This document shows positions 20,337-62,960 of a stretch of DNA of 64,000 nucleotides, piece by piece. A program made the translations under genes and the position numbers. The DNA lies in NCBI GenBank assembly GCA_963714745.1, contig CAVQPK010000002.1, positions 2,239,531 through 2,303,530 of the forward strand, written 5' to 3'. The notes under the pieces are model-generated. The model ran no database searches. It had not been told where the DNA came from and saw nothing but the letters and a program-made list of their open reading frames with translations. Every line of letters begins with the position of its first letter. Positions within the stretch are counted from its first letter, which is position 1. The stretch comes from an uncultured Acidobacteriota bacterium. GTDB taxonomy: Bacteria > Acidobacteriota > Thermoanaerobaculia > Thermoanaerobaculales > Sulfomarinibacteraceae.

Positions 20337-20352
20337 CCACAGGAGAGAACGA

Positions 20353-20378
20353 GTCGAACGCCGCGGAAGTTACATTCC
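20353..20378 (-). promoter_or_regulatory. Candidate ECF-type autoregulated promoter (GGAAT-N17-CGAC)
   Basis: The minus strand reads 'tGGAATgtaacttccgcggcgttCGACtc', ending 17 nt before ATG 20336. It resembles the GGAAC-N16/17-CGT ECF consensus but does not match it exactly. Confidence 0.3.
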
Positions 20379-20482
20379 ACGATCCGAGCCGTCGCGGTCC
20401 GAAGATCGCGGCGGCGGATGCGGCCCAGCCTGCAGGCGCGCAGCACCGACCGCCGAGGTCAGCGGTCGATGGAGGAGAACGA

Positions 20483-20518
20483 CCGAAAAGCAACGGCCCC
20501 CTCCGTGTGGAGGGGGCC
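20483..20518 (-). terminator. Rho-independent terminator of the RRM protein gene
   Basis: On the minus strand: GGCCCCCTCC-ACAC-GGAGGGGGCC (perfect 10-bp stem) followed by GTTGCTTTTCGG, 25 nt after stop 20544. Confidence 0.75.
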
Positions 20519-20543
20519 GAGTGGAGCCGTGGCGAGAGCCCGG

Positions 20544-20858
20544 CTACCAGCGGTCGCGACCGCCGCCGCCGCCGCCGCGACGGCCACCGCCGCCGCCGCC
20601 GCCGCCGTCGCGCCGGTCCTGCGCCACGTCGACGCGGATGGTTCTCCCGTCGAGGGTGGCGCCGTTCATCGCCGAGATCGCCGAGTCGGCAGCCTCGTCC
20701 TCCTCGAAGGTGACGAAACCGAAGCCGCGCGACCGGCCGGTCTCCCGGTCGGTGATGACCTTGGCCTCGACGATCGCGCCGAACGGTGCGAACGCCTCAT
20801 GCAGGCCGGCGTCGTTGGTATTCCAGCTCAAGCTCCCGACAAACAGTTTCTTTCCCAT
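20544..20858 (-). CDS. RRM-type RNA-binding protein with Gly/Arg-rich C-terminal tail
   Basis: Met16 of ORF 20544..20903. RNP-2 'KLFVGSL', RNP-1 'RGFGFVTF', tail 'RRDGGGGGGGGRRGGGGGGRDRW'. Confidence 0.9.
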   Translation of the reverse strand: MGKKLFVGSLSWNTNDAGLHEAFAPFGAIVEAKVITDRETGRSRGFGFVTFEEDEAADSAISAMNGATLDGRTIRVDVAQDRRDGGGGGGGGRRGGGGGGRDRW

Positions 20859-21054
20859 CGCTCTCTCGATCCTCGGCACGGTCGTCTTGCTCGAACGCGC
20901 CAACGCTCGTCAAACGGCAGGCGGGTGTCCGCCCAATAACGATCCGCCCCGACGGCGGATCTTCGGCGGTGCGAGTGTACACCGTTTCTCGTCAACTTCA
21001 AGTGTCCGAGAGAACTGGCTCCTGCGGGTCCGGCCGGAGGGGGAGCCTGAGGGA

Positions 21055-22880: not shown

Positions 22881-24271
22881 AGCTGGCCGTCGGCGCCCCA
22901 GGCGTCGAGCCGGGCGAGGTAGGCCGGGTCTCGGTACCTTTCGAGCCCGAAGGCAGGCGCGGAGCCGGGCAGACGGCCGCCGGTGAGGTGGAGAGCAACC
23001 AGCTCGGCGGTGGCCTGCGAGACCATCAGGCCGAAGCCGGAAAGTGCGCCGTGCACAAACGCCCCTTCGACCGGCAGCGGGCAGGCGAGCGGCCGGTTCT
23101 CGCGGGTCTTGGTGTAGTACCCGCCGTCGACGAAGGGGCGCGGCGGCCGGTCGAAGTAGGCCGCGAGGCCCGGGACCATGGCCGCCATGCCACGCAGGCA
23201 GATCTCGCCGTAGCTCGGCGGCGTCTCGATGGGAAAGGTCTCGGACACCGGATCGGCGTGGTAGGGCCACAGGATCAGCATCCCGCGGCTGTCTCCCGAC
23301 CCCTCGGGCCGCAGGTGGACCCCGGCCGGCATCTCCCGGGTCAGGAACCGCGTGTCTTCGTCGGCGTCGAGCAGCTCTCGCTCCTCCTCGCTCCACGGCA
23401 GCCGCTGGGCGTCCTCCCAGATCAGCAGCGGCGCGTCGCGCGGGACCGTGCCGAGCGCGTCCTCCATCCACGCCTTGCAGTGCAGCTCCGAGAACACCGG
23501 CAGCGCCACCTCGAGCAGGCGGGCGGCGGCAGCCAGGCGCGGGCCGGCTGCGAGCACCAGCCGACCGGTGGGCACCGTGCGCTCGAGACCCCCGCGCTCC
23601 GCGACCCGAACGCCGGCGACCCTTCCGCCGGTTGTCTCGACCGCGACCATCCGTCCCTCGACCAGCCGGACTCCCGCCTCCCGAGCGCGCTCCAGCTGCA
23701 CCATGCCGAGCTGCTGGCCGTCGAGCCAGCCGCAGCGGCGGGTGTGCAGCACCGCCTCAATCCGTCGGGTGAGGAACGGGAACACGGTCCGGATCAGGGC
23801 GGGGTCGAGCAGCAGGTCGGCGCCGTCGGGCGCCTCCTGCCAGCCCTGCTCGCGGTGGGGCAGATAGTCGGGGTCGCTCGCCCGGCCGGTGTGGATTCTG
23901 AGGTCGCCGGCGCCCTGCAAGGTCGCGAGCTCGCCCTGGCGGCGATAGGCGTCGGCCCGCACCGGGTCGGCGGTCGCCCACAGGTAGCCTCGGCGGTTCA
24001 TCCGGAACCGGTTGTCGCACGAGTCCGCCAGCTCCTCGAGCAGGTCGATCGAGCGGTTCATCAGCCGCACCATGGCGTCGTCGGGCCCCGGCCACCAGTT
24101 CCGGTAGGCCTCGGTCGACTTGTCGGAGGTCAGGCTGAGCGGCGGCCCCTCGTCGATCAGAAGCACGTCGCGAACCCCGAAGCGGACCGCCAGGTGGTGG
24201 GCGACAGAAACACCGGCGATGCCGGCGCCGCAGATCACGATCTCGGCACTGGAGGATGGCATCCTCAGCAT
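22877..24271 (-). CDS. FAD-dependent oxidoreductase (DAO family)
   Basis: ATG 24271, in frame with stop 22877. 'EIVICGAGIAGVSVAHHLA' is a dinucleotide-binding motif. The N-terminal 245 aa of the listed 709-aa ORF do not look like protein. Confidence 0.85.
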   Translation of the reverse strand: MLRMPSSSAEIVICGAGIAGVSVAHHLAVRFGVRDVLLIDEGPPLSLTSDKSTEAYRNWWPGPDDAMVRLMNRSIDLLEELADSCDNRFRMNRRGYLWATADPVRADAYRRQGELATLQGAGDLRIHTGRASDPDYLPHREQGWQEAPDGADLLLDPALIRTVFPFLTRRIEAVLHTRRCGWLDGQQLGMVQLERAREAGVRLVEGRMVAVETTGGRVAGVRVAERGGLERTVPTGRLVLAAGPRLAAAARLLEVALPVFSELHCKAWMEDALGTVPRDAPLLIWEDAQRLPWSEEERELLDADEDTRFLTREMPAGVHLRPEGSGDSRGMLILWPYHADPVSETFPIETPPSYGEICLRGMAAMVPGLAAYFDRPPRPFVDGGYYTKTRENRPLACPLPVEGAFVHGALSGFGLMVSQATAELVALHLTGGRLPGSAPAFGLERYRDPAYLARLDAWGADGQL

Positions 24272-25254
24272 GATCGCACGGCGCTCAGCTCCGCGGCTGC
24301 ACCACCTCCCGCATGCGCGGGTCCTCGCGGACCGGCTCGAGCAGCCTCGAGTCGGGACGCATGCACCAGGGGCCCGGCCTCCCCGGAACGCCTGGTCGAG
24401 CGCGGCCTCGCGGTGACCACACGCCCGGAGGGTCCGCGCCCCGAGCAGCGTCAGCCCCCCGATCCGGCCCGTCCGGGTCTCGACCAGCGGTCCGTCGAGG
24501 GGGCGCCGGATTGCGGCGGCCTCCCGCAGCCCGGCTCGTGCGACCACCTCCGCGGCAGCGAAACGGCCGTGCTTCTGCTCGGCTGCACTCGACCTTGTCG
24601 CGCACGAATCGGGCATGGTGTGGTCTTCTCGACGGCCGGTTGGGACTGCTCGGGTGAAGAACTCATGTGCCATGAGGGCTGTGCGGGCGTCATCGGCTGC
24701 CAGACTGTATGGACCGACAACCCTCAGGTGACGGTTCCGAAGAGGCCGGGCAGGACTTCGGAGAGGACAACGGCGATGCCCGGCGATGCGTGGACGCGGA
24801 TGACGATGGAGGTGGCCTGTCGTTCCACGCACACGATACTCCGGGGGGGAGCGGTGATACGTGCTACTACAATGCGGCGAACCGGTTGCCGGTCGCCTTT
24901 CGTCTGCTGGCGGACGGTGGGTACAATCCCGTCTGCGTCCGTGAGAAGGAACCCGGCGTGCCGTTTTCTGGCTGTGATACGAGTGTCGTGGAACTGGGTC
25001 GCGCAACCGCGAGCGAGGTCTTCTTCAGAATCCTGACGGGCTACGCGACTTCGTCAAGTGATTGGGGTGACTTTGCGAACCTCGCCAAGCTCGCCGCTTT
25101 TTGATCTCCACTCCGAGTGCAGTGCGCCCTGCTGCCACGCGACGTCCGAGCAACAGTCGGCCATACAGTCGTTTACCGCCATCGGATACCCTCCAGGCTC
25201 GACGAGCACACTGCAGTGCAAGCCGCTGCAGTGTCTCTGATGAGGTAGGACTAC

Positions 25255-27885
25255 ATGCAGCGAAGCGTCCTCCGCGTGTCAAGATTTGTAGTGGCGGCCG
25301 TCCTCGGGGCGGCCGTCGCCCTTGCCGAGCCCCCTGATCGCGACTCGCTTGAGTACGACCTTTTCGCGACTCGGCGCACATGGTGGATTCCCAGCAACGG
25401 GCAGAGCTTCCAGGGGCTCTGGCGGTACGAGCCAGAAACGGGGGAGTGGGAACGGCTCCGACCGCTCTTCTTCAATCAGCAGACGGACCGTTTTACCCCG
25501 TACAGCCGTAATGGGTACGGGGCTTTCCTCGCAGGGACGGGAGACCGGCTCGTCTTTCAGGTCTGGCCCGCAACCCAGGAGTGGGAGCTCGGCACCTGGC
25601 GGCTGCTTCGTCGGTACGCCCCAATGCCTCGAGAAGCGAGCGGTTGGGTGCTCCACGGCCCAATCGTGTCTGCGGAGATTGCGGCCTCAGCTGGGATCGA
25701 AGCTGGAGCGTACGGTTTTCCGCTGTGCCTGCGCTACCACCTCACCAGCGGCCTCGAACCGGTCGGGCCCGTGAGTTGCGATCCCATCCGCATTCCGGGA
25801 TCAGCTGCTGATGCTGAAGAGACATCGACCTCGCTCCTCGTTATCCAGGGGAGCGGGCCAGCACGAGCACTCACGGATTCGTTCGACCTTGGCCAGGTCA
25901 CCTGGGAGACTGGGAACTCCGGGGTCGAATCACCGCCGGTATTGAGTCTCGACCCAGACAGGAGCGTCCTGTACCGGGGAACACCAAGCACGCTGCAGGA
26001 GTGGACGCTGAGCTGGCCACCAGTCCTGACCAGCGAGATCGACGTTCCCGTGTCGCTCGTCGCACATCCCTACACAGATGTCGACCTGCTGTTCTTTCAC
26101 CCACGCCGAGACCGTTTCTTCTGCGTTACCCGTTCCCCGGCCCTCTTCGGAATTCAGCCTGAAGAGTGGGAGGTGTTCTCCTTTCGACACGACGGTGCTG
26201 ACGTGACTTCGCACGTCCATGTCACAGACGAGGATCCGCTGGGAGTACCCGTCACCCTCGCAGCGGTTGGCGCGGCACCGACGGTGAACACACAGCTCAT
26301 CCCAGTTGTGAGTCGCACGACGGGGATCAACAACACGTTCTGGACGGCAGAGCTCTGGCTGTACAACCCATCCGCGGCCGAAATGGCAGTGACAATCCGG
26401 CGGATCGTCAGCCCTCAGTCGTCGACTGCCGTGACGGTACCGGCGTACGGTTCGCTCCGCATACCTGACGCACTCGCCTGGCTCGGCGGCGGCGAAGCCG
26501 GCGACGGGGTCAAGGCCGATGCGCTCGTGCTCACCTCGCCCTACCGGTGGGGGGCCAACCTCGTCGCCGCGGCCCGAGTCTCGACACCTGCGGAGGGAGG
26601 AGGCAGCTACGGCCAAGCAGTTCCCGCGGTCCCGAGCACGGTCGGGTACTCCAACCACCTTCCGTACTACCCCGAGGAGAGCGACGCCAACTACAACATC
26701 CACTGGGAGGAGCGGCGTCCAGCAACCCTCACGCTCGACCTGCGCGAGCCCGGCCGCTTCCGTCATAACCTCGGAATCGTGAACGACGAGGACGAGCCCG
26801 TTGAGATCACGCTCGAGTGGGCGTACAACCTGATGGCCGAGCAGGATTCCACCGACCTTCGGCCAGCGGCCGTGGTGCAGCGCGTCGCCGCCCCCGCGCA
26901 CAGCGTTCACATCGTCTCGCTCGAGGGCCTCTTCCCACCCGAGGTGCGCGACGCGTGGCCGCCTCGGGTTGCGGTCTACGCCGACCGGCAGGTGGCGCTG
27001 TGGCTGTCGATGGTCGACAACCTGACCGGTGACGCGACCTTCATTCCCTACACCAACCTGACCCTGCATACCGACCTCGACGAGGACTGGTATGCCGTCC
27101 CGGTCGTTGCTCACAGCCCGGGCAGGGAAGGTACGTTCTGGACCACTGCTCTCTACGGTACGGAAGGACGATTCCTGCATCGTTTCGAGTATGACAAGCC
27201 CGACGCTGCCTTCCTGCCGGCAGATCCGGTAGCCGCGTGTGGCGGTGCCGCAGCTGCCGACCGGATCGCCGCCGTCTTGCCAGGAGAGGTGGGCATGCCG
27301 ATGGACCGATGGCTGGAAACGCTGCAAGGCCTCGGCTACGAGCCCACTGAGGACTGGGCGAAGCGAGAATGGCGCACGGTCTTCCCCGACGTGGTCAGGC
27401 TCTTCCCCGCCTGCGCCGAGGAGGACTCCACGAGGGGTGCCCTCGAGGTGCGCGCCGGCTCGTGGACGGCGGGCTTCACCCGCACCTTCACGACCCGCGC
27501 TGACGGCGGCACGTACGGCAGCATGCTGCCCTTCTACCCCCCACACGGCTGGCCGGTGCAGCACTTCGCAGGGATCGAGGTCCGCGCGGGGTGGCGCGTG
27601 AACGTGGGCCTCTACAACGGCCAGCGTGACCGGGCGGTCGTCCACCGCCTCAGCCTCTATGCCGCGGACGGCACGCTCGCGGCCCAGAACGAGCTGACCC
27701 TCGACCCGGGAGCGAGCCTTCTCGAGCCCCTCGCGACCGCACTCGGGGTCCCCTCGCTTCCCGACGGGACGTACGGCTTGACGGTACTTCCCCTCGACGA
27801 CCCCGAGACCGGCGACCAGGGCACCTCCTGGGCCTACGTCTCGCTCGTCGACAACGTCACCGGCGACCCGACGAACTGGTGGTGA
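25255..27885 (+). CDS. Large secreted hypothetical protein (876 aa) with an internally duplicated uncharacterised module
   Basis: Full listed ORF, SD GAGGTAGG upstream, signal peptide 'RFVVAAVLGAAVALAEP'. There are two modules. Each opens with '(I/V)PVV(S/A)..G...TFWT(A/T).L' and closes with 'S(M/L)VDN(L/V)TGD(A/P)T'. GC content and codon usage are visibly lower than in the flanks. Confidence 0.8.
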   Translation: MQRSVLRVSRFVVAAVLGAAVALAEPPDRDSLEYDLFATRRTWWIPSNGQSFQGLWRYEPETGEWERLRPLFFNQQTDRFTPYSRNGYGAFLAGTGDRLVFQVWPATQEWELGTWRLLRRYAPMPREASGWVLHGPIVSAEIAASAGIEAGAYGFPLCLRYHLTSGLEPVGPVSCDPIRIPGSAADAEETSTSLLVIQGSGPARALTDSFDLGQVTWETGNSGVESPPVLSLDPDRSVLYRGTPSTLQEWTLSWPPVLTSEIDVPVSLVAHPYTDVDLLFFHPRRDRFFCVTRSPALFGIQPEEWEVFSFRHDGADVTSHVHVTDEDPLGVPVTLAAVGAAPTVNTQLIPVVSRTTGINNTFWTAELWLYNPSAAEMAVTIRRIVSPQSSTAVTVPAYGSLRIPDALAWLGGGEAGDGVKADALVLTSPYRWGANLVAAARVSTPAEGGGSYGQAVPAVPSTVGYSNHLPYYPEESDANYNIHWEERRPATLTLDLREPGRFRHNLGIVNDEDEPVEITLEWAYNLMAEQDSTDLRPAAVVQRVAAPAHSVHIVSLEGLFPPEVRDAWPPRVAVYADRQVALWLSMVDNLTGDATFIPYTNLTLHTDLDEDWYAVPVVAHSPGREGTFWTTALYGTEGRFLHRFEYDKPDAAFLPADPVAACGGAAAADRIAAVLPGEVGMPMDRWLETLQGLGYEPTEDWAKREWRTVFPDVVRLFPACAEEDSTRGALEVRAGSWTAGFTRTFTTRADGGTYGSMLPFYPPHGWPVQHFAGIEVRAGWRVNVGLYNGQRDRAVVHRLSLYAADGTLAAQNELTLDPGASLLEPLATALGVPSLPDGTYGLTVLPLDDPETGDQGTSWAYVSLVDNVTGDPTNWW

Positions 27886-27992
27886 GGGCGGGCCCGGGTT
27901 GGCGACGCGGCCCGACCCCGGACCCCGCTGCCCGAGCCCGGAAGCTCACTCGCCACGAAGCTGTGAGCCCACGTGGCTGATCCAGCGTGTGA

Positions 27993-28382
27993 TCAGGCTC
28001 GGCTTTCGGAACGCAGCATGCCGTAGACCAGCCCACCGAGGCGGTCGGCCGCGTCCCTTACCATGCTCGGTATCGCGACGCCGCGGGCTGCGAGCAGCGC
28101 GAGCGCCGTCTGGACTTCCTGCACCTCCGCGTAAGCCGCCTCGAGATGCTGGCGGCGGTTGCCCAACGTGCGCCCGCTCGCCTCGGAGAGCCTGAGCGCT
28201 GCGTTGTCAGCAGCTCTGACGAGATGGTCGCGGACGTGGGACAGCCCGCGCGGGGTGGCCAGCGCGGCGATGCTGCCGGCGAGTCCGACAGCAACCTCGA
28301 GCGCGACGAGCTTCCCCCGGCCCCGAGGGAGGGTGTGGTGGGCGGCTCGGGAAGGTCTGGACGAGGGAGTGTGCTGGCTCAT
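27993..28382 (-). CDS. Four-helix-bundle protein (TIGR02436 / 23S rRNA-intervening-sequence-protein-like)
   Basis: ATG 28382 within ORF 27993..29369, with GGGGAGAGG upstream. 'LVRAADNAALRLSEASGRTLGNRRQHLEAAYAEVQEVQTALALLAARG' fits the family pattern as I recall it. A truncated paralog lies at 49347-49493. Confidence 0.65.
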   Translation of the reverse strand: MSQHTPSSRPSRAAHHTLPRGRGKLVALEVAVGLAGSIAALATPRGLSHVRDHLVRAADNAALRLSEASGRTLGNRRQHLEAAYAEVQEVQTALALLAARGVAIPSMVRDAADRLGGLVYGMLRSESRA

Positions 28383-28400
28383 GCCTCTCCCCGAAGGCGG

Positions 28401-28472
28401 CCGGCGGCTGGCTGTCAAGGGTGGCCTTCGGCCATGAGCCCTGCGAGCCTGCCCTTGACAGCCAGCCGCCGG
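28401..28472. repeat. Perfect 21-bp inverted repeat with 30-nt spacer just upstream of the four-helix-bundle start
   Basis: CCGGCGGCTGGCTGTCAAGGG (28401-28421) pairs with CCCTTGACAGCCAGCCGCCGG (28452-28472). Imperfect homology extends to about 28345 and 28525, including a mirrored copy of the gene 5' end ('TGAGCCAGCACAC'). Confidence 0.85.
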
Positions 28473-28740
28473 TCGCCTACTCCGACCAGCTGAGCCAGCA
28501 CACGTCCCGGCCAGACCGTCGAGTCGCGCGCGACGATCTCGGTCCCGGGACGCGATCCCGACCCCGCTGCCCGACCTCGCTACCCGCTGCCCGTCCCCCG
28601 ATCCCGGACCCCGCGCCCCGCCTCCCGCCGCCCGACCCCGGACTCTCACGCGCCTCGATCCTCTGAGACTCCGTTCGCTCACCAGGGCCACGGCTCGCAG
28701 ACACGCGGCCCGTGCCGCGCTCTCCCCGCCCGGTCCCGTC

Positions 28741-31556: not shown

Positions 31557-31584
31557 GCCGCGAAGGCGCGAAGAGCGCGAAGTC
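31557..31584. repeat. Short octamer array (GCGCGAAG-like x3)
   Basis: 'GCCGCGAAGGCGCGAAGAGCGCGAAGTC' lies in the ppc/epmB intergenic region. It is a variant of the purine-rich octamer arrays seen elsewhere in the window. Confidence 0.5.
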
Positions 31585-31710
31585 AGTCTCCGCAGAGCTG
31601 GACCTGCTCGAGCAGTTCCCTCGCGATCTCGGCGCCTGGGCGGTTCACAGCTCGGGCGGGTGGGGGATCTCTGAGCCCGTCCGCGCTCCGGTGTCGCTGA
31701 GGTCGTGGTC

Positions 31711-42664: not shown

Positions 42665-42726
42665 GGGACTCCTCGCGGGCCGGACCTTCTATCACCTGGG
42701 GGCGGTGGCGTCAATGGAGAGAATAG

Positions 42727-42770
42727 TGATCAGTGAGGAATGGTGACTGATGAGTGATGAGTGGGGGGTG
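42727..42770. repeat. Heptamer/octamer array (TGATGAG-like) followed by a G-rich tract
   Basis: 'GTGATCAGTGAGGAATGGTGACTGATGAGTGATGAGTGGGGGG', followed by 'GGTGGCGGGACGCAGGGGAGGGTGCGGGCTGGGGCGG'. Confidence 0.5.
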
Positions 42771-44845: not shown

Positions 44846-46091
44846 CCGGCTGACCGCGGCCCGGCTCCTGGTTCGGGTCGAGAAGGGGGCGTTCGCCTCG
44901 CGGTTGCTCGGTGGGCGCATGGGTCCCGGCGTGCGGGTGCGGGTGCTCGGCGTGCTGCGCTGGCAGCGGCTCCACGACACCGTGCTCGCCCGGTTCTCAC
45001 GGCGGCCGCTGGCGAGCCTCGACCCCGAGGTTCGAGCATCGCTGCGGATCGGTCTGCTCGAGCGGTCGCAGATGGGCCTGCCGGCGGCGGTCGCGGTCGA
45101 CGGCGCGGTCCGACTGGTCCGCGACCTGGGCCACGGCTCGGCGACGGGGCTGGTCAACGCCGTGCTGCGACGGGCGACCGCCGCCCTCGAGGACGCCGCC
45201 GAGGGCGTCCCCGACGACCTGGAGTGGTCGCACCCCGAGTGGCTCGCGGCGCGCTGGCGAGGGGTTCTCGGCAGCGAGGCGACCCGCGACGCGATGGCCG
45301 CGGCCCAGCACCCCGCCCCGGTCTGGGTGTGGTTCGTCGAGCCGTCCGAGCAGCATCGGCTGGCAGCCGATGGTGTCGTCCTGAGGTCCCACCCGTGGTG
45401 TCCGGGGGCGTTCTCGGCGCGGGACGACGTCGCGTTGGTGCTGGAGGCCGTGGGCCGGCGCGCGGCCTATGTCCAGGATCCGACCTCGCAGCTGGTCGCG
45501 CACCTCGCGGCCCGGCTCGCGCCCGAGAGCGCGGCCCTGCTGGACCTGTGTGCCGCGCCGGGGGGCAAGTCGGCGCTGGCGCATCGGCTGCGCCCCTGGC
45601 GGTCGGCGCTCGCCCTCGATCTTCGGGCCTCCCGGCTGCGGCTGGTGCGACCCCTGGCCGCAGCGATGGGCGGACCGTTGCTGGCGGTGGCCGACGCCGC
45701 CCGTCCGCCGCTCGCAGGCCGGAGCTGGGACCTGGTCCTGCTCGACGCTCCGTGCTCCGGAACCGGGACACTGCGGCGTCACCCGGAGCTCAAGTGGCGC
45801 CTCTCCCCGGAGCTTATCGGCGAGGCCGCCGCGACCCAGACCCGCCTGCTCCGCTCGGCGGTCGAACTGGTCGCGCCGGACGGCATCCTGCTCTACGCCA
45901 CCTGCTCCCTCGAGCCGGAGGAGAACGAGGCGCATTTCGCGCTCCCTCCCCCAGGCTTCGATCCCGCACCGCTGGAGCCCTTCCTCACTGCCGGTGTGCC
46001 CCACCTCCCCACCCCTGCCGGCGGAATCCGCATCCCGACCACTCGCGACGGCGACGGCTTCACCCTCCACGCCTTCCGGCGGACATCATGA
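44826..46091 (+). CDS. rsmB: 16S rRNA m5C methyltransferase RsmB/Sun-like
   Basis: Motifs: 'DLCAAPGGKS', 'LLDAPCSGTGTLRRHPE', 'LLYATCSLEPEENE'. The start is uncertain: GTG 44826 was chosen, and TTG 44808 is the longest ORF. It overlaps the fmt end. Confidence 0.85.
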   Translation: MASASADRLTAARLLVRVEKGAFASRLLGGRMGPGVRVRVLGVLRWQRLHDTVLARFSRRPLASLDPEVRASLRIGLLERSQMGLPAAVAVDGAVRLVRDLGHGSATGLVNAVLRRATAALEDAAEGVPDDLEWSHPEWLAARWRGVLGSEATRDAMAAAQHPAPVWVWFVEPSEQHRLAADGVVLRSHPWCPGAFSARDDVALVLEAVGRRAAYVQDPTSQLVAHLAARLAPESAALLDLCAAPGGKSALAHRLRPWRSALALDLRASRLRLVRPLAAAMGGPLLAVADAARPPLAGRSWDLVLLDAPCSGTGTLRRHPELKWRLSPELIGEAAATQTRLLRSAVELVAPDGILLYATCSLEPEENEAHFALPPPGFDPAPLEPFLTAGVPHLPTPAGGIRIPTTRDGDGFTLHAFRRTS

Positions 46092-46341
46092 GGAACCACC
46101 AAGACACCAAGACACCAAGATCGGGGATGCGGTTCGCTCATGGCAGGCGGATCTCGGAGTGGATGGTCTGAGAGCCGACGGGCACGGGAGCCCCGAACTC
46201 GGAGCGGAAGTGCTCCGCGGGTTAGGGCCCTGTGTGCGGTGGTTCAGTGGGTTCAACCGGTGGTGCGGATTCGCGCGCGATCCAGGACCGGACAGACTTC
46301 TGGGACCCTCGGCAGCCTCTTGGTGTCTTGGTGGTGATCTC
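46092..46341. repeat. MITE-like unit: about 190 bp bounded by inverted (CACCAAGA)n arrays
   Basis: 'GGAACCACCAAGACACCAAGACACCAAGATC' (46092-46122) is inverted relative to 'CCTCTTGGTGTCTTGGTGGTGATCTC' (46316-46341). It fills the convergent rsmB/CPBP intergenic region. Confidence 0.7.
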
Positions 46342-46348
46342 GGGCCCG

Positions 46349-47038
46349 CTACCCGAAGGCGAGGAACCACCCGGCGGCGAAGACCGCGACGTCGGCGAGC
46401 ACGTGGGCGACCCAGCCGGGCCAGATCGAGCGGTAACGCCGGTAGCACCAGCCCCAGATCCAGCCGCCCGTGAACACCCCGAGGCAGGCGAGGACGACCA
46501 GACCCGGGGCGAGGTAGCGCGACATGGCGACCGCGTGATGGACGGTGAAGAGGGCAGCGGAGACCGCGGTCGCAGCGGAGCCCGGCATCAGCCTCTCGCA
46601 GCGTGTGAGCACGAACCAGCGCCACACGTACTCTTCCATCACTGAGTTGACCAGGGTCCAGGCGGCGGCCGCGGCGAGGAAGCGTTGCGGCGTGGCGAGC
46701 CCCATCCCTTCGAGGGCAGCGCGCAGGGCCGCCGCCTCGAGGGTGGGCAGGACGATCCAGGTCGTGAGGGCGATCGCGGCCATGGTCGCGGTACCGAGCA
46801 GGAGACCGACGCCGATCCCTCCGCGCCGGACGGGCGACCAGCTCGGCCTCCCGCGATCGACGCGCAGCAGCCAGAGGGTCGGGAGCAGCAGCAGCCAGAT
46901 CTTGGCGGCGAGGAAGACGAGCCGGCCCGCCGGTCCCGGAGCGACCACCATGGCAGCGATCACCCCCAGGGTCGGCACCGGCGCGATCAGGACCAGGCCC
47001 ATCAGGGCCCGGTTGCGATCCCAGGCACGACCGCCCAC
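46349..47038 (-). CDS. CPBP family intramembrane glutamic endopeptidase (CAAX protease-like)
   Basis: C-terminal part of ORF 46349..47521. Motifs: 'EEYVWRWF', 'FTVHH', 'HVLADVAVF'. The start is GTG 47038 or ATG 47002; neither has a clear SD. Confidence 0.75.
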   Translation of the reverse strand: MGGRAWDRNRALMGLVLIAPVPTLGVIAAMVVAPGPAGRLVFLAAKIWLLLLPTLWLLRVDRGRPSWSPVRRGGIGVGLLLGTATMAAIALTTWIVLPTLEAAALRAALEGMGLATPQRFLAAAAAWTLVNSVMEEYVWRWFVLTRCERLMPGSAATAVSAALFTVHHAVAMSRYLAPGLVVLACLGVFTGGWIWGWCYRRYRSIWPGWVAHVLADVAVFAAGWFLAFG

Positions 47039-47144: not shown

Positions 47145-48858
47145 ATGCGCCAGGGTGTTGTGGTCGGCATGTGTCTGTTCGTGGTCTGCGTCGCCGTCGC
47201 CGGCGACCGGCCGGAGGGGCTGTCGTTCGCGACCCGCTCGGTGACCGTCGCCCGCCACGGCATGGTGGCCGCGGCCCACCCGCTCGCGGTCCAGATCGGG
47301 CTCGAGGTGCTCAAGCACGGCGGCAGCGCGGTCGACGCGGCGATCGCCACCAACGCGGCTCTGGCGCTCATGGAGCCGATCGTCCTGCGGGCTCGGCGGC
47401 GACCTGTTCGCGATCGTCTGGGACCCGAAGGAACGGCAGGCTGTACGGACTCAACGGCTCCGGGCGGGCGCCGCGCGGCTCTCACCATCGACAAGGTCCC
47501 GCCCGAGCCGGACGGCACCATTCCGCTCTACTCGCCCTACGCGTGGACCGTTCCCGGCTGCGTCGACGGCTGGTTCGAGCTGCACGCGCGCTTCGGCCGG
47601 CTGCCGCATGGCCGAGCTGCTCGCACCGACCATCGCCGCCGCCCGCGAGGGCGTGCCGGTGCCCCAGGTGATCGCCGGCTGCGTGGGCCCGCGGGATGCC
47701 CCGCTTTCGGCGACAAGCCCGGTTTCGCGGAGGTCTTCCTGCTCGACGGCCGGGCGCCCGCCGAGGGCGAGTCGTTCGCCAACCCGGCGCTGGCCCGACC
47801 CTGGAGATGATCGCCGCGGGCGGCCGCGACGCGTTCTACCGGGGGCCGATCGCCGAGCGCGATCGTCGCCTACTCGGACCAGGTCGGCGGCTTCTTCTGG
47901 CCCGGAGGACCTCGCCGAGCCACCCCAGCGAGTGGGTCGAGCCGATCTCGACCACCTACCGCGGCGTCACGGTCTGGGAGCTGCCGCCCAACGGCCAGGG
48001 CCTCGCCGCCCTCCAGATGCTCAACATCCTCGAGGGCTTCGACCTCGCGGCGATGGGTCGGGACTCGGCCGATCTCTGGCACCTGATGGTCGAGGCCAAG
48101 AAGCTCGCCTACGACGATCGGGCGCGGTTCTACGCCGACCCGGCCTTCGCCGAGCTGCCGGTCGCGGGCCTGATCTCGCAAGGCCTACGCGCGAGCCGGC
48201 GCGGCGCCCTGATCGACCTCGCGCGGGCGGCCCGGCGGCTCGAGCCGGGCAACCCCCACCTGCGGGCACGGCGACACCACCTTCCTGGTCGCCGCCGACT
48301 CCGACGGCATGATGGTCTCCCTGATCCAGTCCAACTACACCGGCTTCGGCTCCGGCTACGTGGTCCCCGAGCTCGGCTTCGGGATCCAGAACCGCGGCGC
48401 GCTGTTCTCCCTCGACCCCGACCACCCGAACGCCCTCGCGCCGGGCAAGCGTCCGTTCCACACCATCATCCCGGCCTTCCTCGGCGAGCGCGGCGTGCCC
48501 AACGTCGCCTTCGGCGTCATGGGCGGGCGACATGCAGCCCCAGGGGCACGTGCAGATCGTGGTCAACCTGGTCGACTTCGGCATGAACCTGCAGGAGGCC
48601 GGCGACGCCGCCCGCTTCCACCACGCCGGCTCGTCCGAGCCGACCGGGACCCGGTGATGGAGGACGGCGGCGAGCTGCACCTCGAGTCGGGGGTGCCGGT
48701 GGACGTCCGTCGGGAGCTGATCCGACGCGGTCACCGCCTGGTCGAGAGCACCGGCACCGTGTTCGGCGGCTACCAGGCCATCCGCCGCGACCCGGTCACC
48801 GGCGTCTACTACGGCGCCACCGAGTCGCGAAAGGACGGCATGCGCGGCGGGCTACTGA
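47145..48858 (+). pseudogene. ggt: Gamma-glutamyltransferase, interrupted by several frameshifts
   Basis: ATG 47145 with GGGAGG upstream. 'GMVAAAHPLAVQIGLEVLKHGGSAVDAAIATNAALALMEP' is in ORF 46545..47810. 'WVEPISTTYRGVTVWELPPNGQGLAALQMLNILEG' is in 47696..48586. 'HGDTTFLVAAD' was translated manually. 'MVSLIQSNYTGFGSGYVVPELGF...PGKRPFHTIIPAF' is in 48309..49001. The putative true end is '..AAGY*', with TGA at 48856-48858. Confidence 0.8.
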
Positions 48859-48863
48859 GTAGT

Positions 48864-49686
48864 CCACAGAGGACGCAGAGAACCTCAGCGCGGGTCGTGC
48901 CCGCAACCCAAGTGACCGGTGAGCGAACGCGGCCGCTTCCGTTCACGGGGAGGCAAGAACCCGGGGTCGGGCAGCGGGCGACGGGCGGCCGGTCCGGGTG
49001 AGTCACGAGCCGCGAAGCGACTCAGTACGCCGTCGCCCGCCCCCGGCCGCCCGTCGCCTGGATGGGCGCGATGGTGGGTCCCCCGAATCCGAGGCAACTC
49101 CGGCACGGCCCCTCTCCCGGGCACGGGCCAGACCCCAGGGTGTGACGGTGATTGCGGTGCCGGAGGAGACCATTCGACTCCGCGGCCCTGGCGGGCCGCT
49201 CCGCTCAGGGTGACGGCTGGTGTGCGGCGCCTCGAACGCGGTCGTCCCCGGCACGCGAGCCGGTCTCTTCCCTCCCGTGTCTCCTGAGCGAGCGAGCCGG
49301 AGGCGAGCGGATGAACCCAGGGCAACACCACTGTCAGCAGCCGAGGGCGGCCTACGCGGAGGTGCAGGAGGAGCAGAGCGCTCTCACTCTGATGGCGGTA
49401 CGCGGCATCGAGATCCCGGAGGTGGTCGTCGACACTGTCGACCGCCTCGGCGGTCTCGTGTACGGGCTCCTCCGATTCGAGAGGCGTGGTTGAACGCCCC
49501 TCAAGTCAGCGGTTTCAGAGTGCTGCGCAGCCAGAACGTCGTCGAAGGAACGACGATTCTCGGTCAGGAGTCGAACACAGCATCCTCCCTCCAGAAGCTC
49601 GCGTTTCGGGGCTGGTGCTCAGGCACCAGCCCGAAAACGTCAATCTCGGGTGGGCGGGGGCTCTGTGCCTCTGTGCCTCTGTGGTG
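48864..49686. repeat. Repeat element of about 820 bp bounded by inverted (CACAGAGG)n arrays, carrying a degraded four-helix-bundle gene
   Basis: 'CCACAGAGGACGCAGAGAACC' (48864-48884) is inverted relative to 'CTCTGTGCCTCTGTGCCTCTGTGGTG' (49661-49686). The interior shares G-rich blocks ('GGGGTCGGGCAGCGGGCG') with 28.5 kb, 56.8 kb and 58.4 kb. Confidence 0.7.
49347..49493 (+). pseudogene. Truncated paralog of the four-helix-bundle gene (C-terminal about 48 codons)
   Basis: 'AAYAEVQEEQSALTLMAVRGIEIPEVVVDTVDRLGGLVYGLLRFERRG' compared with 27993-28382 'AAYAEVQEVQTALALLAARGVAIPSMVRDAADRLGGLVYGMLRSESRA'. That is 32 of 48 identical by eye. Upstream sequence has lost the frame. Confidence 0.6.
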
Positions 49687-52600
49687 AGTCTTCCTGGTCG
49701 CCCTGCTCGAGGCGGGCGGCTGGCCAGGCGGCGGTGGGGGCGTCCGGAGCGGCCTCGGGCGGGTCCGCGGGCAGCAGCACGGTGAAGGTGCTGCCCGCGC
49801 CCGGCGCCGACGTCACGACGACCCGACCCGCCATCAGCGCCACGTAACGCCTCACCAGCGCGAGGCCGAGTCCGCTGCCCCCGAACCGCCGTCCCGAGCC
49901 CGAGTCGAGCTGGCGGAACTCCTCGAAGATGCGCTCCTGGTCTTCCGCCGCGATCCCGATGCCCCGGTCCTCGACCGCGAGCTCGAGGGTGCGCCGGCCG
50001 AGCGAACCGGTGTCCGACACCGCTGTGCGAGCCAAGACCACGACCCGGGACCCCTCGGGAGAGAACTTGACCGCGTTGGACACCAGGTTGAACAGCACCT
50101 GTCGCACCTTGCCCGCGTCGAGACGGAAGTCCGGGAGCCCGGCCTCGACCTTCTGTACGAGCTCGATGCCGCGGGTCGCCGCCATGCCGTGGGCGATCCG
50201 ACACACGTCGTCGACCAGCGAGCCGACGGACACCTGCTCGATCTCGAGCACCATGCGGCCGGATTCGATCTTGGACAGGTCGAGGATGTCGTTGATCAGG
50301 GCGAGCAGGTGCTGGCCGCTGGAGAGGATGTTGGTGAGAAAACGCGGCACCCTCGGGTCATCGGCGCCGTCGAGCTTGCGCAGCAGAATCTCGGAGAAGC
50401 CGATGATCGCGTTCAGGGGTGTGCGCAGCTCGTGGCTCATGGCAGCGAGGAAGGCGCTCTTGGCGCGGCTCGCCTGCTCGGCGGCGCGCCCGGCGCGCTC
50501 GAGCTCGCGCACCGCGTGCGCCTTGTCGAGCGCGATGATCGCGTGCTGGCGGTAGCGTTCGAGGGCGCGGATCTCGGCGTCGCGCAGCCGCTCGAAGGGC
50601 ATTCCCAGGTCGAAGAGCAGGAACGCGACCACCCGGCCTTCGAGCTGGAGGTCGACCGCGAGCAGGGTCCGTCCGGGGGGCAGGTGGCGCACCCGGTCGG
50701 CGCCCGGCCTGTGCTCGAGGCCGCGCACCACCGAGATGCCCTCGCCGATCCGGTCCTCCGGGTCCGCGAATCGCGCCAGCGCCTCGTGGCGGGGAAACGA
50801 GAGGTCCTCCACCAGCCCGGGAGGCCAGCCGGTGGAGGCGGCGACGGCGAACCGCTCGCCGTCCTCGTCGGTGAGCAGGAGAACTCCGGTGCGGGCACGC
50901 CGCAGCAGCACCAACCCTTGATCGAGCAGGGTGGTGGCCACCTTGTCGAAGACCACCTCGCGGTTGACCGTGGCCACGATGCGGTCGAGGGTCTCGAGCT
51001 CCGCGGCGTAGGTGCGCAGCTCGGTGGTGCGGGCGGCCACCACGCTCTCGAGCTTGCGGGTCCGTTGCCTGAGGCGGGCCGTTCGCCACCGGTTGGAGAT
51101 CTGCACGCCGAGCGCGAGCACCAGCACGGCCGCGGCGGCGGCCCACCAGCTCTGCCACCACACCGGCCGGACCGTGAAGGCGAAGCTCAGCGGCTCGGAC
51201 CACGAGTCGGAGCCGGTCGTCGCGGCGACCTCGAAGGTGTACCCGGTCGGAACGAAGAGCGCCGGCAGGTTGGTGTAGCGAAGGCGGGTGTCGGCCGTGG
51301 GCGGCGACCAGCGATCGGAGAACCCCCGCAGCCGGGTGCGGTAGCGGACCCCGCTCTCGTCGATGAAGGTCAGGGCGCTCCACTGGAGGTTGACCTCGTT
51401 GGCGGCCGAGGGTTCGTCCTCGATCGTCGCCGTGCGCAGCACGAGCCGCGGCGACCCTCCCCGACCGTGGTCCAGCGCAGGGCGGTACCGGGTCAGCCCC
51501 TTCGGAGTTCCCAGGTACACCGTGCCGTCCTCCGCCACCGCCAGCGACGAGTCGGCGCCCCATGCCTCGTTGTCGATCAGGCCGTCGGCCTTCGAGACCG
51601 TTCGCAGCACGCGGCCCGCGGTGATGTCGACCTCGGCCAACCCCGAGTTCTGGGTCACCCACAGGGAACCGGGGGACGACGGGTCGAGTGCCATCCCCAT
51701 CACGTGGTTTCCCCCGAGGCCGGTCTCGCGGTCGAGCCGTGTGGTGATGCCGGCGGGATCGCCCGCCACGGCGAACAGGCCCGCGGCCGAACCGATCCAC
51801 ATCCGGTCTCCCGCCCACAGCAGGTTGTGGACGGCGTTGGTCGGCGCGCCGCGGTTCCGGTCCCACCACGGCTCGAGCAGCGGCACGGCGACCGTCCGGT
51901 CGGAGTCCGCATCCCCGACCCCGCGCCGGAGCATCTCCAGGGTGACCGGCCCGGGGCTGCGCAGGACGCCGCTGTCCTTGGAGACCACCCACAGGCGGCC
52001 GTCGGGGTCGAGTGAGGTGGACACCGCCCCGGAGGCCGGGACTCCGGCCGCTGTGTGCAACACGAACCACGAGCCTCCACCCCAGACCGTGACGCCGGCG
52101 GTTCCCGAGAGCCACACCGCCGGCTCGAGCCGGCTGCGGTCCGCCCGCGCGGCGACCGGAAGCACCCGGGATCCGTAGAGCGTGCCGGTCGGGTAGGTGC
52201 CGAGCCGGTAGGGTCGTCCCAGAATCAGCAGCCGCCGTTGCTGGGTCCTGCCGAGAGGCCCGGGCAGAGGCGGGCCGGGAGTGAGCACGCCCAGTCCTTC
52301 GAGGGTGCCGATCCAGATCCGCCCCGAGGAGTCCCGGGTGAGGGTGTAGATCGAGCCGGACGGCAGCCCGTCCGCGACCCCGACCACCGCTCGGCGACCA
52401 TCCGCGGCCAGCGCCGCGAGACCGCCGCCGGTGCCGGCCCAGATCACCCCGTCGGGATCGTCCTGTGCCGGCGGCAGGACGGCGAAGACCGAGGGGTCGG
52501 GCAGTGACGGCGCCACGCCGGCGCGACTGCGGCCGGTAAAATGTTCGAACGCGGCATAGTTCGGGCGGAGCCGGGAGCAGCCGGAGTTGGTCGCGAACCA

Positions 52601-53593
52601 GAGGCTGCCCTCGTGGTCGCGCAGCAGGTGCCACACGGTCTCGGAGAGGAAGCCATGGCGGCGGTCGAAACGGCGGGCCGCCTCCGCCCGGCCGCCAGGC
52701 AGCAGCAGGACGCCGCTGCCCAGCGAGCACACCCAGACGTCGCCCGCGGGGGTGGCCAGGATCGAGTTCACCTGCTCGGTGAGGGCTCCCGCGATCGCCG
52801 TGAACCGGGGCGGCCCGCTTTCGACGAGCCGGATCAGCATGCCGGTGCGGCAGCCCGCCCAGAGGGCGCCGTCGGGCGCCTCGTGGAGCGCCGTGACCTG
52901 GGTGCAGGGGACCGACTGGGCGGCGAGGTACGTGATGGTGTCGGCGTCGGGCTCGATGAACCCGACCGGTCCGCTCTCCAGTGCGACCCACACCGTGCCG
53001 TCGCTGCGCAGCGCGAGCGATGCGCCGCCCGATGTCCCGGAATCCGCCCCGGTCCCGAGCGGAATCGCGCTTTCGTGCACCCGTCCGTCGGGGCTCATGC
53101 GGTAGTGACGCAGGCCCTGCCCCGAGGTCGCGACCCACACCCCGCCGTCAGCCGCCGGGGCCATCCAGGTGTGTCGGATCCGGGTGCGCGCCAGCTCGAC
53201 CTCGCCGACCCGCGACCGGAACCGCGGGCGCCGGGTGCTGGTGGCGGCGGTCACCGGCCGGTCGGAGACCACGACGCCGGTCTCGGAGCCTACCCAGATG
53301 TAGCCCGAGCCGTCCTGCAGCACCTCGCGCACGGTGGAGTCGAGCAGGCCGTCGGCCATTCCGAACAGCTCGAGCTCCTGGCCGTCGTAGCGGGCGAGCC
53401 CCGACGAGAAGAAGCCGAGCCAGATGAACCCGGTGCGGTCCTGGTAGATGGTCTGCACGCTCGACGACGGCAACGGCACCCGCTGGTGCTCGGTGGTGAA
53501 GTGGGTGAGCGGAAGCTCCTCGGACAGGACCTGGGCCACGACCAGGCTGCAGGCGGCGAAGGCCACCGTTCGGAGCACGGGGCTCGCGGGCAT
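49640..53593 (-). CDS. Hybrid-architecture sensor histidine kinase: periplasmic beta-propeller repeats (two-component regulator propeller / Y_Y_Y type), TM, GAF-like, HisKA, HATPase
   Basis: Full listed ORF (1317 aa). Repeated 'G.IW.GT..GL' propeller units, H-box 'AMSHELRTPLN', N-box 'VLFNLVSNAVKF', G-boxes 'DRGIGI' and 'GGSGLGLA'. Confidence 0.9.
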   Translation of the reverse strand: MPASPVLRTVAFAACSLVVAQVLSEELPLTHFTTEHQRVPLPSSSVQTIYQDRTGFIWLGFFSSGLARYDGQELELFGMADGLLDSTVREVLQDGSGYIWVGSETGVVVSDRPVTAATSTRRPRFRSRVGEVELARTRIRHTWMAPAADGGVWVATSGQGLRHYRMSPDGRVHESAIPLGTGADSGTSGGASLALRSDGTVWVALESGPVGFIEPDADTITYLAAQSVPCTQVTALHEAPDGALWAGCRTGMLIRLVESGPPRFTAIAGALTEQVNSILATPAGDVWVCSLGSGVLLLPGGRAEAARRFDRRHGFLSETVWHLLRDHEGSLWFATNSGCSRLRPNYAAFEHFTGRSRAGVAPSLPDPSVFAVLPPAQDDPDGVIWAGTGGGLAALAADGRRAVVGVADGLPSGSIYTLTRDSSGRIWIGTLEGLGVLTPGPPLPGPLGRTQQRRLLILGRPYRLGTYPTGTLYGSRVLPVAARADRSRLEPAVWLSGTAGVTVWGGGSWFVLHTAAGVPASGAVSTSLDPDGRLWVVSKDSGVLRSPGPVTLEMLRRGVGDADSDRTVAVPLLEPWWDRNRGAPTNAVHNLLWAGDRMWIGSAAGLFAVAGDPAGITTRLDRETGLGGNHVMGMALDPSSPGSLWVTQNSGLAEVDITAGRVLRTVSKADGLIDNEAWGADSSLAVAEDGTVYLGTPKGLTRYRPALDHGRGGSPRLVLRTATIEDEPSAANEVNLQWSALTFIDESGVRYRTRLRGFSDRWSPPTADTRLRYTNLPALFVPTGYTFEVAATTGSDSWSEPLSFAFTVRPVWWQSWWAAAAAVLVLALGVQISNRWRTARLRQRTRKLESVVAARTTELRTYAAELETLDRIVATVNREVVFDKVATTLLDQGLVLLRRARTGVLLLTDEDGERFAVAASTGWPPGLVEDLSFPRHEALARFADPEDRIGEGISVVRGLEHRPGADRVRHLPPGRTLLAVDLQLEGRVVAFLLFDLGMPFERLRDAEIRALERYRQHAIIALDKAHAVRELERAGRAAEQASRAKSAFLAAMSHELRTPLNAIIGFSEILLRKLDGADDPRVPRFLTNILSSGQHLLALINDILDLSKIESGRMVLEIEQVSVGSLVDDVCRIAHGMAATRGIELVQKVEAGLPDFRLDAGKVRQVLFNLVSNAVKFSPEGSRVVVLARTAVSDTGSLGRRTLELAVEDRGIGIAAEDQERIFEEFRQLDSGSGRRFGGSGLGLALVRRYVALMAGRVVVTSAPGAGSTFTVLLPADPPEAAPDAPTAAWPAARLEQGDQEDSPQRHRGTEPPPTRD

Positions 53594-56774: not shown

Positions 56775-56993
56775 CCTACGGGGCACGGCGCACGCCTGAC
56801 CCGAGAACCACGCGGACAGTGAGCGGACCGGGTCGCAGCGCGTACCCGGCGGGCAACGGATACCGGGATCGGGCAGCGGGCGGCCGGGCTCGGATCCGGG
56901 CTCGCGTCGCCGCCCTGGCCGCCGACGCCGCCCGTCTCCGGTCGCCCGCCCGGTGGGGGAGGGACCCCGGGTCGGCGCTGCCCGCGCCGTGCT

Positions 56994-58295: not shown

Positions 58296-58836
58296 GGAAC
58301 CACAGAAACACAACGCGGCCCGTGCCGGCAACCCAAGCTGTCGGAAAGGCGAGGCGGCTGTGTCCATGGTGAGGCGCGTGAGAGTCCGGGTTTCGGGGGA
58401 CGGGGTGCAGCTCCGGGACCCGGTGCCGACCCGGGGCCGAGTCGCGGGGTGGGTCAGGTCCGACACCCCCCGCTGTCACCTTGAGCGGAGCGGCCTCCGA
58501 GGCCGCGCAGTCGAAAGGTCCCCTCCGGGAAACGAGCCCCGCGCCAAACAAGCCCGTCCTCTCGTAGCCGACCCTGGATCGAATCGCGAGGCCGGTCAGG
58601 CCCGATGCCGCCGCCCGTCCCCCGACCGCCCGAGCCCCGGAACGGAAGGCGGCGATCCGAGTCGAGACCCCGAGCGTGGAACGCGCGTGAGAGTCCGGGA
58701 TTCGGGGGACGGGGCGCGGGACCGGGCCCCGTCCCCCGAACCCCGGAATGGAGCGCACCCGTCCACCGGAGGCGATCGCCTGCGACAACCGGCAGCTCGG
58801 GTTGCGGGCACGGCCCGCGCTGAGCCTCTGCGGTTC
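58296..58836. repeat. Repeat element of about 540 bp bounded by inverted GAACC(A/G)CAGA arrays, containing a 32-nt direct repeat
   Basis: 'GGAACCACAGAAACACAAC' (58296-58314) is inverted relative to 'CCTCTGCGGTTC' (58825-58836). The direct repeat 'GCGCGTGAGAGTCCGGG(T/A)TTCGGGGGACGGGG' lies at 58374-58405 and 58683-58714 (31 of 32 identical). An inverted copy lies at 28631-28653. Confidence 0.75.
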
Positions 58837-62900: not shown

Positions 62901-62960
62901 CCGCAGAGACCCAGAGGCACGGAGGGGACTCTCTGTGCTCCTCTGTGTCTGCCTCTGTGG
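62901..62960. repeat. Back-to-back inverted octamer arrays (solo hairpin of the CACAGAGG family)
   Basis: 'CCGCAGAGACCCAGAGGCACGGAGG' and 'CTCTCTGTGCTCCTCTGTGTCTGCCTCTGTGG' are separated by about 5 nt. Confidence 0.65.

Follow-up and report, generated by a model that had tools for sequence, protein, structure and literature searches.

What occupies the spacer between rsmB and the convergent, minus-strand gene for an Rce1-like (CPBP) protein, and what kind of element is it? At this position the window (the whole 64-kb stretch of DNA analysed here, with a G+C content of about 72%) carries element A, which consists of a purine-rich tandem array, an interior, and an inverted copy of the array (Table 1); the rsmB stop codon TGA (46089-46091) directly precedes the GGAAC (46092-46096) at the beginning of the left arm, and the stop codon of the Rce1-like gene (46349-46351) lies 9 nt beyond the right arm. 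The two arms share an 18-nt exact inverted match (46095-46112 and 46318-46335), and because an exact 24-nt octamer array is accompanied by such a match 200 nt away, a chance origin in 64 kb is excluded. The left arm also fits the pattern ACCAC(NRRGRCAC)n used in our genome scan. The interior is approximately 91% identical to that of the related locus L204, and contains no noteworthy open reading frame, no Rfam match, and no remnant of the GxxExxY genes discussed below. Element A belongs, as a copy without a gene, to a very large class of intergenic inverted-repeat elements that spans phyla, and this class is apparently one that has not been described previously; literature searches on the arrays and on GxxExxY or PDDEXK_3 turned up no account of the arrays in the papers covered.

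An initial annotation of this DNA had listed several further loci of the same design, and these differ in standing. Elements B, C, and D are real, if less clean than A, and the segment at 31559-31646 is a probable member, but membership of the TGATGAG array at 42725-42763 is unsupported, as it has no partner array and does not fit the unit consensus. Loose degenerate patterns are not enriched in the window at 72% G+C (30 found and 28 expected in one case, 23 and 16 in another), and thus only near-exact or paired arrays count, and copy counting by loose patterns is unusable.

Table 1. Array elements of the 64-kb window and their component parts.
Feature	Coordinates	Strand	Composition or remark
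Probable CGC-type member	31559-31646		(CGCGAAGR)x3, 36-nt spacer, degenerate inverted arm CCTCGCGATCTCGGCGCCTGGGCGGTTCA
Element A, left arm	46092-46120		GGAAC + (CACCAAGA)x3; sequence, TRF
Element A, left tandem units	46097-46120		CACCAAGA x3; TRF, 100% matches
Element A, interior	46121-46315		195 nt, between the two arms
Element A, right arm	46316-46339		CC(TCTTGGTG)x2 GTGATC; inverted copy of the left arm
Element A, right tandem units	46318-46333		TCTTGGTG x2; GTGATC then runs to 46339
Element B, left array	48864-48883		CCACAGAGG ACGCAGAG AAC (full array CCACAGAGGACGCAGAG)
Array-terminated repeat inside B	48884-49214	+	Homologous to the reverse complement of C 58475-58824
Element B, right array	49661-49686		(CTCTGTGC)x3 TGG; TRF
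Element C	58296-58836		540-nt MITE-like unit; terminal inverted repeats (TIRs) of ~50 nt, imperfect
Element D	62901-62960		Back-to-back imperfect hairpin: CCGCAGAGA CCCAGAGG CACGGAGG / TCTCTGTGC TCCTCTGTG TCTGCCTCTGTGG

The left array of element B lies directly 3' of the ggt stop codons (TGA 48856-58, TAG 48860-62), its interior of 776 nt is composite, and its right array falls within the C-terminal tail of a histidine-kinase open reading frame (49640-53593, minus strand). The TIRs of element C are GGAACCACAGAAACACAACGCGGCCCGTGCCGGCAACCCAAGCTGTCGG and, in reverse complement, GTGAACCGCAGAGGCTCAGCGCGGGCCGTGCCCGCAACCCGAGCTGCCGG; degenerate arrays start each of them, and the right end of the element overlaps the stop codon of a minus-strand gene. 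Homology at both ends joins the left half of B to the right half of C in reverse complement, with about 370 nt in common and with conserved ends consisting of CTCAGCGCGGGYCGTGCCCGCAACCC and a 55-nt block, and this shows that an array-terminated repeat of this length was copied within this genome. At 31559-31646 the GCGCGAAG array occupies 31559-31582, and the degenerate inverted arm (31619-31646) ends in GGTTCA; because CGCGAAG and CGCAAAG arrays flank GxxExxY genes elsewhere (L125, L179, L161, and L191), GCGCGAAG is a true unit type of this family.

In the 1317-aa histidine kinase, the pyrimidine-arm array (window 49640-49690) encodes the C-terminal tail (...QRHRGTEPPPTRD) together with the stop codon. 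The same array-encoded tail is present in L201 (7947-7976) and L202 (4550-4580), and the array has thus long been part of the reading frame; the ending ...QRHRGTE... carries the signature that the initial annotation described for spurious reading frames. The gamma-glutamyltransferase gene (47145-48858) is apparently frameshifted at least twice, in that the intact GGT proteins of L201 and L204 (565-566 aa) align in frame 3, then in frame 2 (~47660-48265), and then again in frame 3, and it is either a pseudogene or affected by assembly indel errors. A second dispersed, G-rich repeat, GCGCGTGAGAGTCCGGGxTTCGGGGGACGGGG, and related CGGGxTCGGGCAGCGGGCG tracts lie inside or beside array elements (58371-58422, 58683-58731, and, in reverse complement, 28605-28656; also 48956-48992 and 56848-56887). 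Elsewhere in the window there is a 27-nt near-perfect inverted repeat, GGCGGCTGGCTGTCAAGGG...CCCTTGACAGCCAGCCGCC (28395-28421 and 28452-28478, with a 30-nt spacer), adjoining a C-rich tandem repeat of 34-nt period (28562-28643); a (CCG)x19 run (20560-20615) inside a long plus-strand reading frame (20272-22854) with a coding-like codon-position G+C; and a stretch at 24000-28000 with a G+C of 0.66-0.67 against ~0.72 and a weak coding-frame signal, which may be acquired DNA.

Scanning one genome per species with the pattern ACCAC(NRRGRCAC)2NRRG places the arrays, among the matches listed, in more than 10 phyla, including Acidobacteriota and Planctomycetota (for both of which the initial annotation mentioned similar arrays), Chloroflexota, Bacteroidota, and Ignavibacteria, with further listed matches in Alpha-, Beta-, and Deltaproteobacteria, Cyanobacteria (two genome loci, L022 and L070), Spirochaetes, Verrucomicrobia, Lentisphaerae, and Nitrospinota; one listed match is archaeal, in a Methanotrichaceae MAG. 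An inverted partner lies within 150 nt downstream in 72 of the 159 strict arrays in the listed genome matches, and only 9 are everted; the strict arrays in the listed matches to IMG/VR viral contigs number 193, of which 96 have such a partner and 7 are everted. The fixed design claimed at the outset for a dispersed family (array, interior, inverted array) thus recurs among at least 159 strict genome arrays and at least 193 viral arrays with a strong orientation rule, about half of the strict arrays having a partner, and the arrays are not confined to the window. Hairpins of octamer arrays are abundant on viral contigs (IMG/VR loci L205-L324 and L330).

Each arm is a tandem array of at least 2-3 units with the consensus C-R-C-N-R-R-G-R and a period of 8-9. 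In the paired class, as in A, B, C, and D, the inverted partner is downstream and the (A)ACCAC termini point outward, and either DNA strand or transcript direction can fold, looping out the interior. Outside the array terminus the genome-scan arrays have a purine-rich consensus followed by TT[A/C]ACCAC, and flank composition varies by lineage, being A-rich upstream in some and T-rich in others. Interior lengths are bimodal (6-200 nt and ~380-510 nt), and most copies share only their arms, the interiors being unrelated. We see no excess of target-site duplications, as the distribution of direct-repeat lengths at 145 hairpins equals that of the control. At its gathering score Rfam has no match in the window, in 20 array loci, or in 18 cassette and relative loci, and at a permissive threshold these yield only sub-threshold miRNA-like hairpin families; this and the literature search agree with the earlier statement that the arrays have no established function.

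That any transcript crossing a pair would form a hairpin, as also proposed initially, is borne out by folding of the window elements. Element A as RNA has a closing stem of at least 18 bp (z = -3.5, 0/200 shuffles), and strong folds are likewise obtained for C (z = -6) and D (z = -3.3). A two-sequence alifold of element A contains no compensatory pairs. An intrinsic terminator was considered for element A and rejected on two counts: there is no terminator-like site or U-tract at 45800-46600, and in the class as a whole the neighbouring genes face the element inward in 55 cases and outward in 53 (by crude gene calling).

The strong folds, and the location of the elements tightly between genes, abutting stop or start codons, would suit host-beneficial, non-mobile RNA hairpins of the STRR kind (short tandemly repeated repetitive sequences of cyanobacteria), whose arrays would originate in place through slippage, which also homogenises them, and whose stem either stabilises or processes mRNA (as an RNase III site or through 3' protection) or couples translation. 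We regard such a host-useful hairpin as the main rival to a selfish-element reading, although on balance an unlikely one. A mild excess of elements in convergent spacers, seen in the lower-GC subset, is in its favor, but the even split between inward- and outward-facing genes gives no 3'-end bias, there is no U-tract, and conserved structure in the interior is weakly supported (p = 0.046 for element A, from a fold of the window sequence alone). The differences between arms speak to the same question. Although the arms are ~86% complementary, mirrored units are no more alike at their variable positions than are shifted units of the same hairpin (0.792 and 0.794 respectively, permutation p = 0.56), while units from different hairpins are less alike (0.653); the arms thus share a unit type and not an exact mirror sequence. 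There is no strand-clustered tolerance of G.U or A.C among the arm differences (p = 0.33), and neither this wobble-tolerant asymmetry nor register-specific complementarity is seen, which counts against the host-useful hairpin. Furthermore, the C, C, and G positions of the unit are fixed across phyla, and an invariant CAC...G in more than 10 phyla is unnecessary for a stem. Together these comparisons point to sequence-specific recognition of each unit and concerted evolution of the arrays, and not to selection on single base pairs.

Recognition of each unit does not by itself say what does the recognizing. One candidate is a host chromosomal protein, nucleoid-associated or topological, for which the arrays would be DNA sites in the way that REP/BIME elements bind gyrase and IHF, with the nuclease genes described below being incidental. 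The per-unit constraint, the invariant positions, the lack of register complementarity, the intergenic location, and the absence of orientation bias relative to genes are all compatible with this, but there is no single host protein common to all these phyla, an archaeon, and phages, and both the strict inverted pairing and the tight bracketing of one gene family would go unexplained; we consider it improbable.

The gene family in question is found in the longer class of interiors (~380-510 nt), which is occupied by one gene coding for a GxxExxY protein of ~130 aa (TIGR04256, PF13366 PDDEXK_3; E = 1e-39 to 1e-45), with arrays lying within a few to ~40 nt of its start and stop codons. As a control for ascertainment we fetched 80 metagenome loci by protein alone, blind to the arrays, of which 69 genes have enough flanking sequence. 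At least two CACNRRG units are present upstream in 36 of the 69, and at least two inverted units downstream in 30; the full arrangement, with purine arrays upstream and pyrimidine arrays downstream, occurs in 28/69 GxxExxY genes and in 0/192 control positions taken from these loci. Variant units (CGCAAAGR, CACAACGG, or 9-mers) are present at many of the 69 that seem negative, and a motif-free tandem-repeat finder recovers C-R-C-N-R-R-G-R beside GxxExxY genes. A weak sense-strand bias is seen in the cassettes (63 versus 43). Pfam comparison of 47 adjacent open reading frames and of those inside long pairs identifies PF13366 as the sole recurrent family beside arrays; other neighbors are unrelated housekeeping genes, and no other cargo family was found inside the longer pairs. 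To the initial annotation we thus add minor refinements, namely that the units are 8-9 nt, that a CGC type exists as well, and that there is a link, new here, to GxxExxY cassettes.

The GxxExxY family is enormous, with at least 8000 members (8000/8000 scored candidates have E <= 1e-10), and many of the retrieved clusters are on very short contigs. An AlphaFold model (pLDDT 92) has a minimal PD-(D/E)XK fold like those of RecB, Cas4, and lambda exonuclease, in which residues D83, E93, K95, and Q107 are invariant and the D...ExK...Q site is intact. PF13366 has been described as a family of unknown function with multiple transfers between divisions (PMC3424549).

In the window the class is represented by its gene-less form. 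Searches by tblastn and HMM found no GxxExxY gene in the 64-kb window or in 32 kb of its relatives, and a sensitive HMM search of 123 short interiors and of the interiors of A, B, and C likewise gave no remnant of GxxExxY; it follows that the nuclease, if it acts on these hairpins, must do so in trans. The pattern-based scan of IMG/VR (2.9 million viral contigs) yielded one confirmed GxxExxY relative, although arrays are plentiful there; this lone viral relative is flanked by a 9-mer variant, CGCAGATAA. These searches also bear on the possibility that the short hairpins are decayed cassettes, from which the nuclease gene has been deleted so as to leave arms and junk. The two classes of interior length could be read in this way, as could two loci described below (L326 and L329) that keep only right-terminus remnants at a site occupied in sister genomes. 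Yet besides the lack of remnants in the interiors, short hairpins are much more numerous than cassettes and abound on viral contigs, for which a single GxxExxY relative is confirmed by the pattern-based scan; we give this explanation little weight.

The window is probably part of an Acidobacteriota MAG, as its RsmB has 57% identity to the nearest homologue with a named source, from an Acidobacteria MAG. Comparison of the rsmB-Rce1 site in four syntenic relatives (L204, L202, L201, and L203) reveals different occupants of the same spacer. L204 (RsmB identity 74%) has the same element A; in L202 (72%) the units are of the CACAGAG type and the interior is unrelated; L201 (70%) has (GGTGAGGA)x3 opposite CTCCGTGCCTCTGTGG; and in L203 (68%) arrays are absent at both gene ends. 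Similarly, the spacer between ggt and the histidine-kinase gene is 780 nt in the window versus 76-77 nt in L201 and L204. These sequence comparisons show gain, loss, and replacement of elements at orthologous sites, and the existence of relatives with no element, or a different one, at the same site is not what a host-useful hairpin would predict. We also note that identity to L204 is 90% across element A and 50-130 nt on either side of it but 78% outside, and that third codon positions of rsmB are 59% identical to L204 upstream of 46030 but 90% identical in the last 58 nt. The resulting high-identity tract (window 46030-46480, ~450 nt) covers element A and both gene ends, and fits recent recombination better than selection on the element alone, at this one locus and with a short-read L204 contig that could be chimeric. 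Other short-unit arrays occur at orthologous gene ends, including (AGTGATG)n in the window (42725-42763), (GGTGAGGA)x3, (CGCGAGA)n, and (GTAAGAAG)x3 in L201 (5264-5290 and 7870-7935), and (CGCAAGA)x4(CGYGAGA)x4 in L202 (4250-4320); these perhaps represent additional unit types, or else repeat families of their own.

A second site, the junction of the split methionine synthase genes metH-N and metH-C in Chitinophagaceae, exists in three states. In L328 the metH stop and start codons overlap, and the site is empty and pristine; L018, L143, L144, L325, and L327 have an orthologous GxxExxY cassette between the two genes; and L326 and L329 have only a right-terminus remnant, GTTGTAGTTCAA and CCTGCGTGGTTCAA respectively. 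The five nucleases are orthologous, and since their identity (61-78%) tracks that of MetH-N (82-88%), the metH cassette has been inherited vertically and is not highly mobile. Its arrays nonetheless differ (CACGGAG/CACAGAG, CACAAAG, CACAACG, and CACGAAG/CGCAAAG), with both arms switching together, and cassettes can thus be long-term residents whose arms evolve in concert. This joint switching of unit type is also what a host-useful hairpin under selection for pairing would show. The overlapping codons in L328 can be read likewise, since with a stem spanning the insert the two genes could regain their translational coupling, as has been proposed for STRR hairpins (PMC2670836).

Comparison with known systems helps to place the class, which is closest in kind to the cyanobacterial STRR hairpins and closest in logic to REPIN/RAYT. 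STRR are 7-mers with other sequences (CCCCAGT and similar), and they are reportedly also inserted in a helix of RNase P RNA (described by Vioque in 1997). Like the arrays here they are short tandem units, intergenic and often hairpin-forming, for example between hupS and hupL. However, they are heptamers described for heterocystous cyanobacteria, whereas the present units are 8-9 nt with the sequence CRCNRRGR (the period by TRF is 8 in the window and 8-9 elsewhere) and a defined ACCAC outer terminus, occur in more than 10 phyla and on viral contigs, and are linked to a nuclease gene family; the hairpin arrangement of arrays is shared and the heptamer is not. For STRR, a role in transcript stability or translational coupling has been proposed (PMC2670836).

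The likeness to REP/REPIN-RAYT systems lies in high copy number, intergenic location, inverted pairing into hairpins, absence of target-site duplication, and a single gene family that is flanked by the same repeats that disperse without the gene. REPs are single palindromes of 20-40 nt with a GTAG or CGTC head (PMC3733652), whereas the arms here are non-palindromic purine-rich arrays beginning with ACCAC; the REP enzyme is a Y1 (HUH) transposase of the IS200/IS605 type, and here the gene encodes a PD-(D/E)XK nuclease. Pfam identified no IS200/IS605-like Y1 transposase among the 47 adjacent open reading frames or those inside long pairs.

With MITEs the class shares terminal inverted repeats, small size, multiple copies, intergenic location, and presence on viral contigs (compare PMC11602168). 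If the elements were classical MITEs, moved by a DDE transposase acting on their terminal inverted repeats, this would account for their multiple copies and their size below 600 bp, and in particular for the MITE-like element C and the interior sequence shared by B and C. They differ, however, in that there are no target-site duplications here, the interiors of most copies are unrelated, and the termini are arrays of units and not a unique inverted repeat; furthermore, no transposase, or parent IS that could supply one, was seen among the 47 neighboring open reading frames or inside long pairs. Of the explanations weighed here we find this the least credible.

Two other comparisons are with inserts that carry a gene. 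The intervening sequences of 23S rRNA exist in short and long forms, of which the long form carries one small gene, and both have an inverted repeat at their boundaries, the stem of which RNase III cleaves. Here too an insert would be looped out of a host RNA, but the cargo is GxxExxY and not the four-helix-bundle IVS protein, and the elements lie between protein-coding genes; Rfam identifies no rRNA in the window. Free-standing homing endonuclease genes are known, and I-Ssp6803I is an example of a homing enzyme with a PD-(D/E)XK fold. The presence of a small selfish nuclease gene is similar, and the tract extending from element A into both flanks resembles co-conversion; the differences are that the metH cassette is inherited vertically, that the pristine L328 site has no hairpin to serve as a target, and that cleavage here is putative. 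Integron attC sites were also considered and rejected, as the RYYYAAC ... GTTRRRY cores are absent and the termini, by inspection, are TT[A/C]ACCAC ... GTGGT[G/T]AA. The element fails the tests that define a REP, a MITE, a terminator, an attC site, and every Rfam family.

We therefore ask which mechanism best accommodates the class as a whole. Our preferred reading, to which we give a probability of roughly 0.4, is that these are selfish hairpin elements spread by recombination, with units that are recognition sites for a protein, probably a nuclease acting in trans; this mechanism is one that we infer. The elements would be selfish DNA that spreads or is exchanged by a nuclease- or recombination-based route leaving no target-site duplication; the invariant C-C...G positions of the unit would be repeated recognition sites for a trans-acting protein, with a GxxExxY nuclease whose gene lies elsewhere in the genome as the best candidate. 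Pairing of the arms in a transcript would isolate the insert from the flanking genes, either by looping it out or as a likely RNase III substrate, and the elements may be tolerated because of this insulation. A more specific proposal is that arrays and GxxExxY genes together constitute an unrecognised selfish system, like REPIN/RAYT but built on a PD-(D/E)XK nuclease that would recognise CRCNRRGR units and mobilise or home not just its own cassette but thousands of gene-less hairpins as well, in more than 10 phyla and their phages; this we consider doubtful as it stands.

The outward paired design, the wide distribution, the bracketing of GxxExxY genes, the per-unit constraint, and the dynamics at orthologous sites all favor selfish elements spread by recombination. 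Several observations count against them: the window is without a GxxExxY gene, and the viral scan produced its one relative despite abundant arrays; the metH cassettes are inherited vertically; the support from a recombination tract comes from a single locus; most copies share arms and not interiors, unlike copy-and-paste transposons, with no target-site duplication above control; and selection for pairing would also accommodate the joint change of unit type in the two arms of orthologous cassettes.

Repeats of the dispersed hairpin kind (REP, STRR, and MITEs among them) influence how operons are expressed, how plastic genomes are, and how well genomes assemble, and to our knowledge no function or mobility mechanism has been assigned to STRR-type arrays since they were first described. 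Soil and sediment phyla that have been little studied, and their viruses, carry the octamer class in abundance, and its arrays create spurious tails on open reading frames, as in the histidine kinase above. The statistically strong link to GxxExxY genes gives each of two orphans, the arrays and a huge nuclease family, a testable partner, and suggests that there may be a second selfish system of enzyme plus repeat beside RAYT/REPIN.
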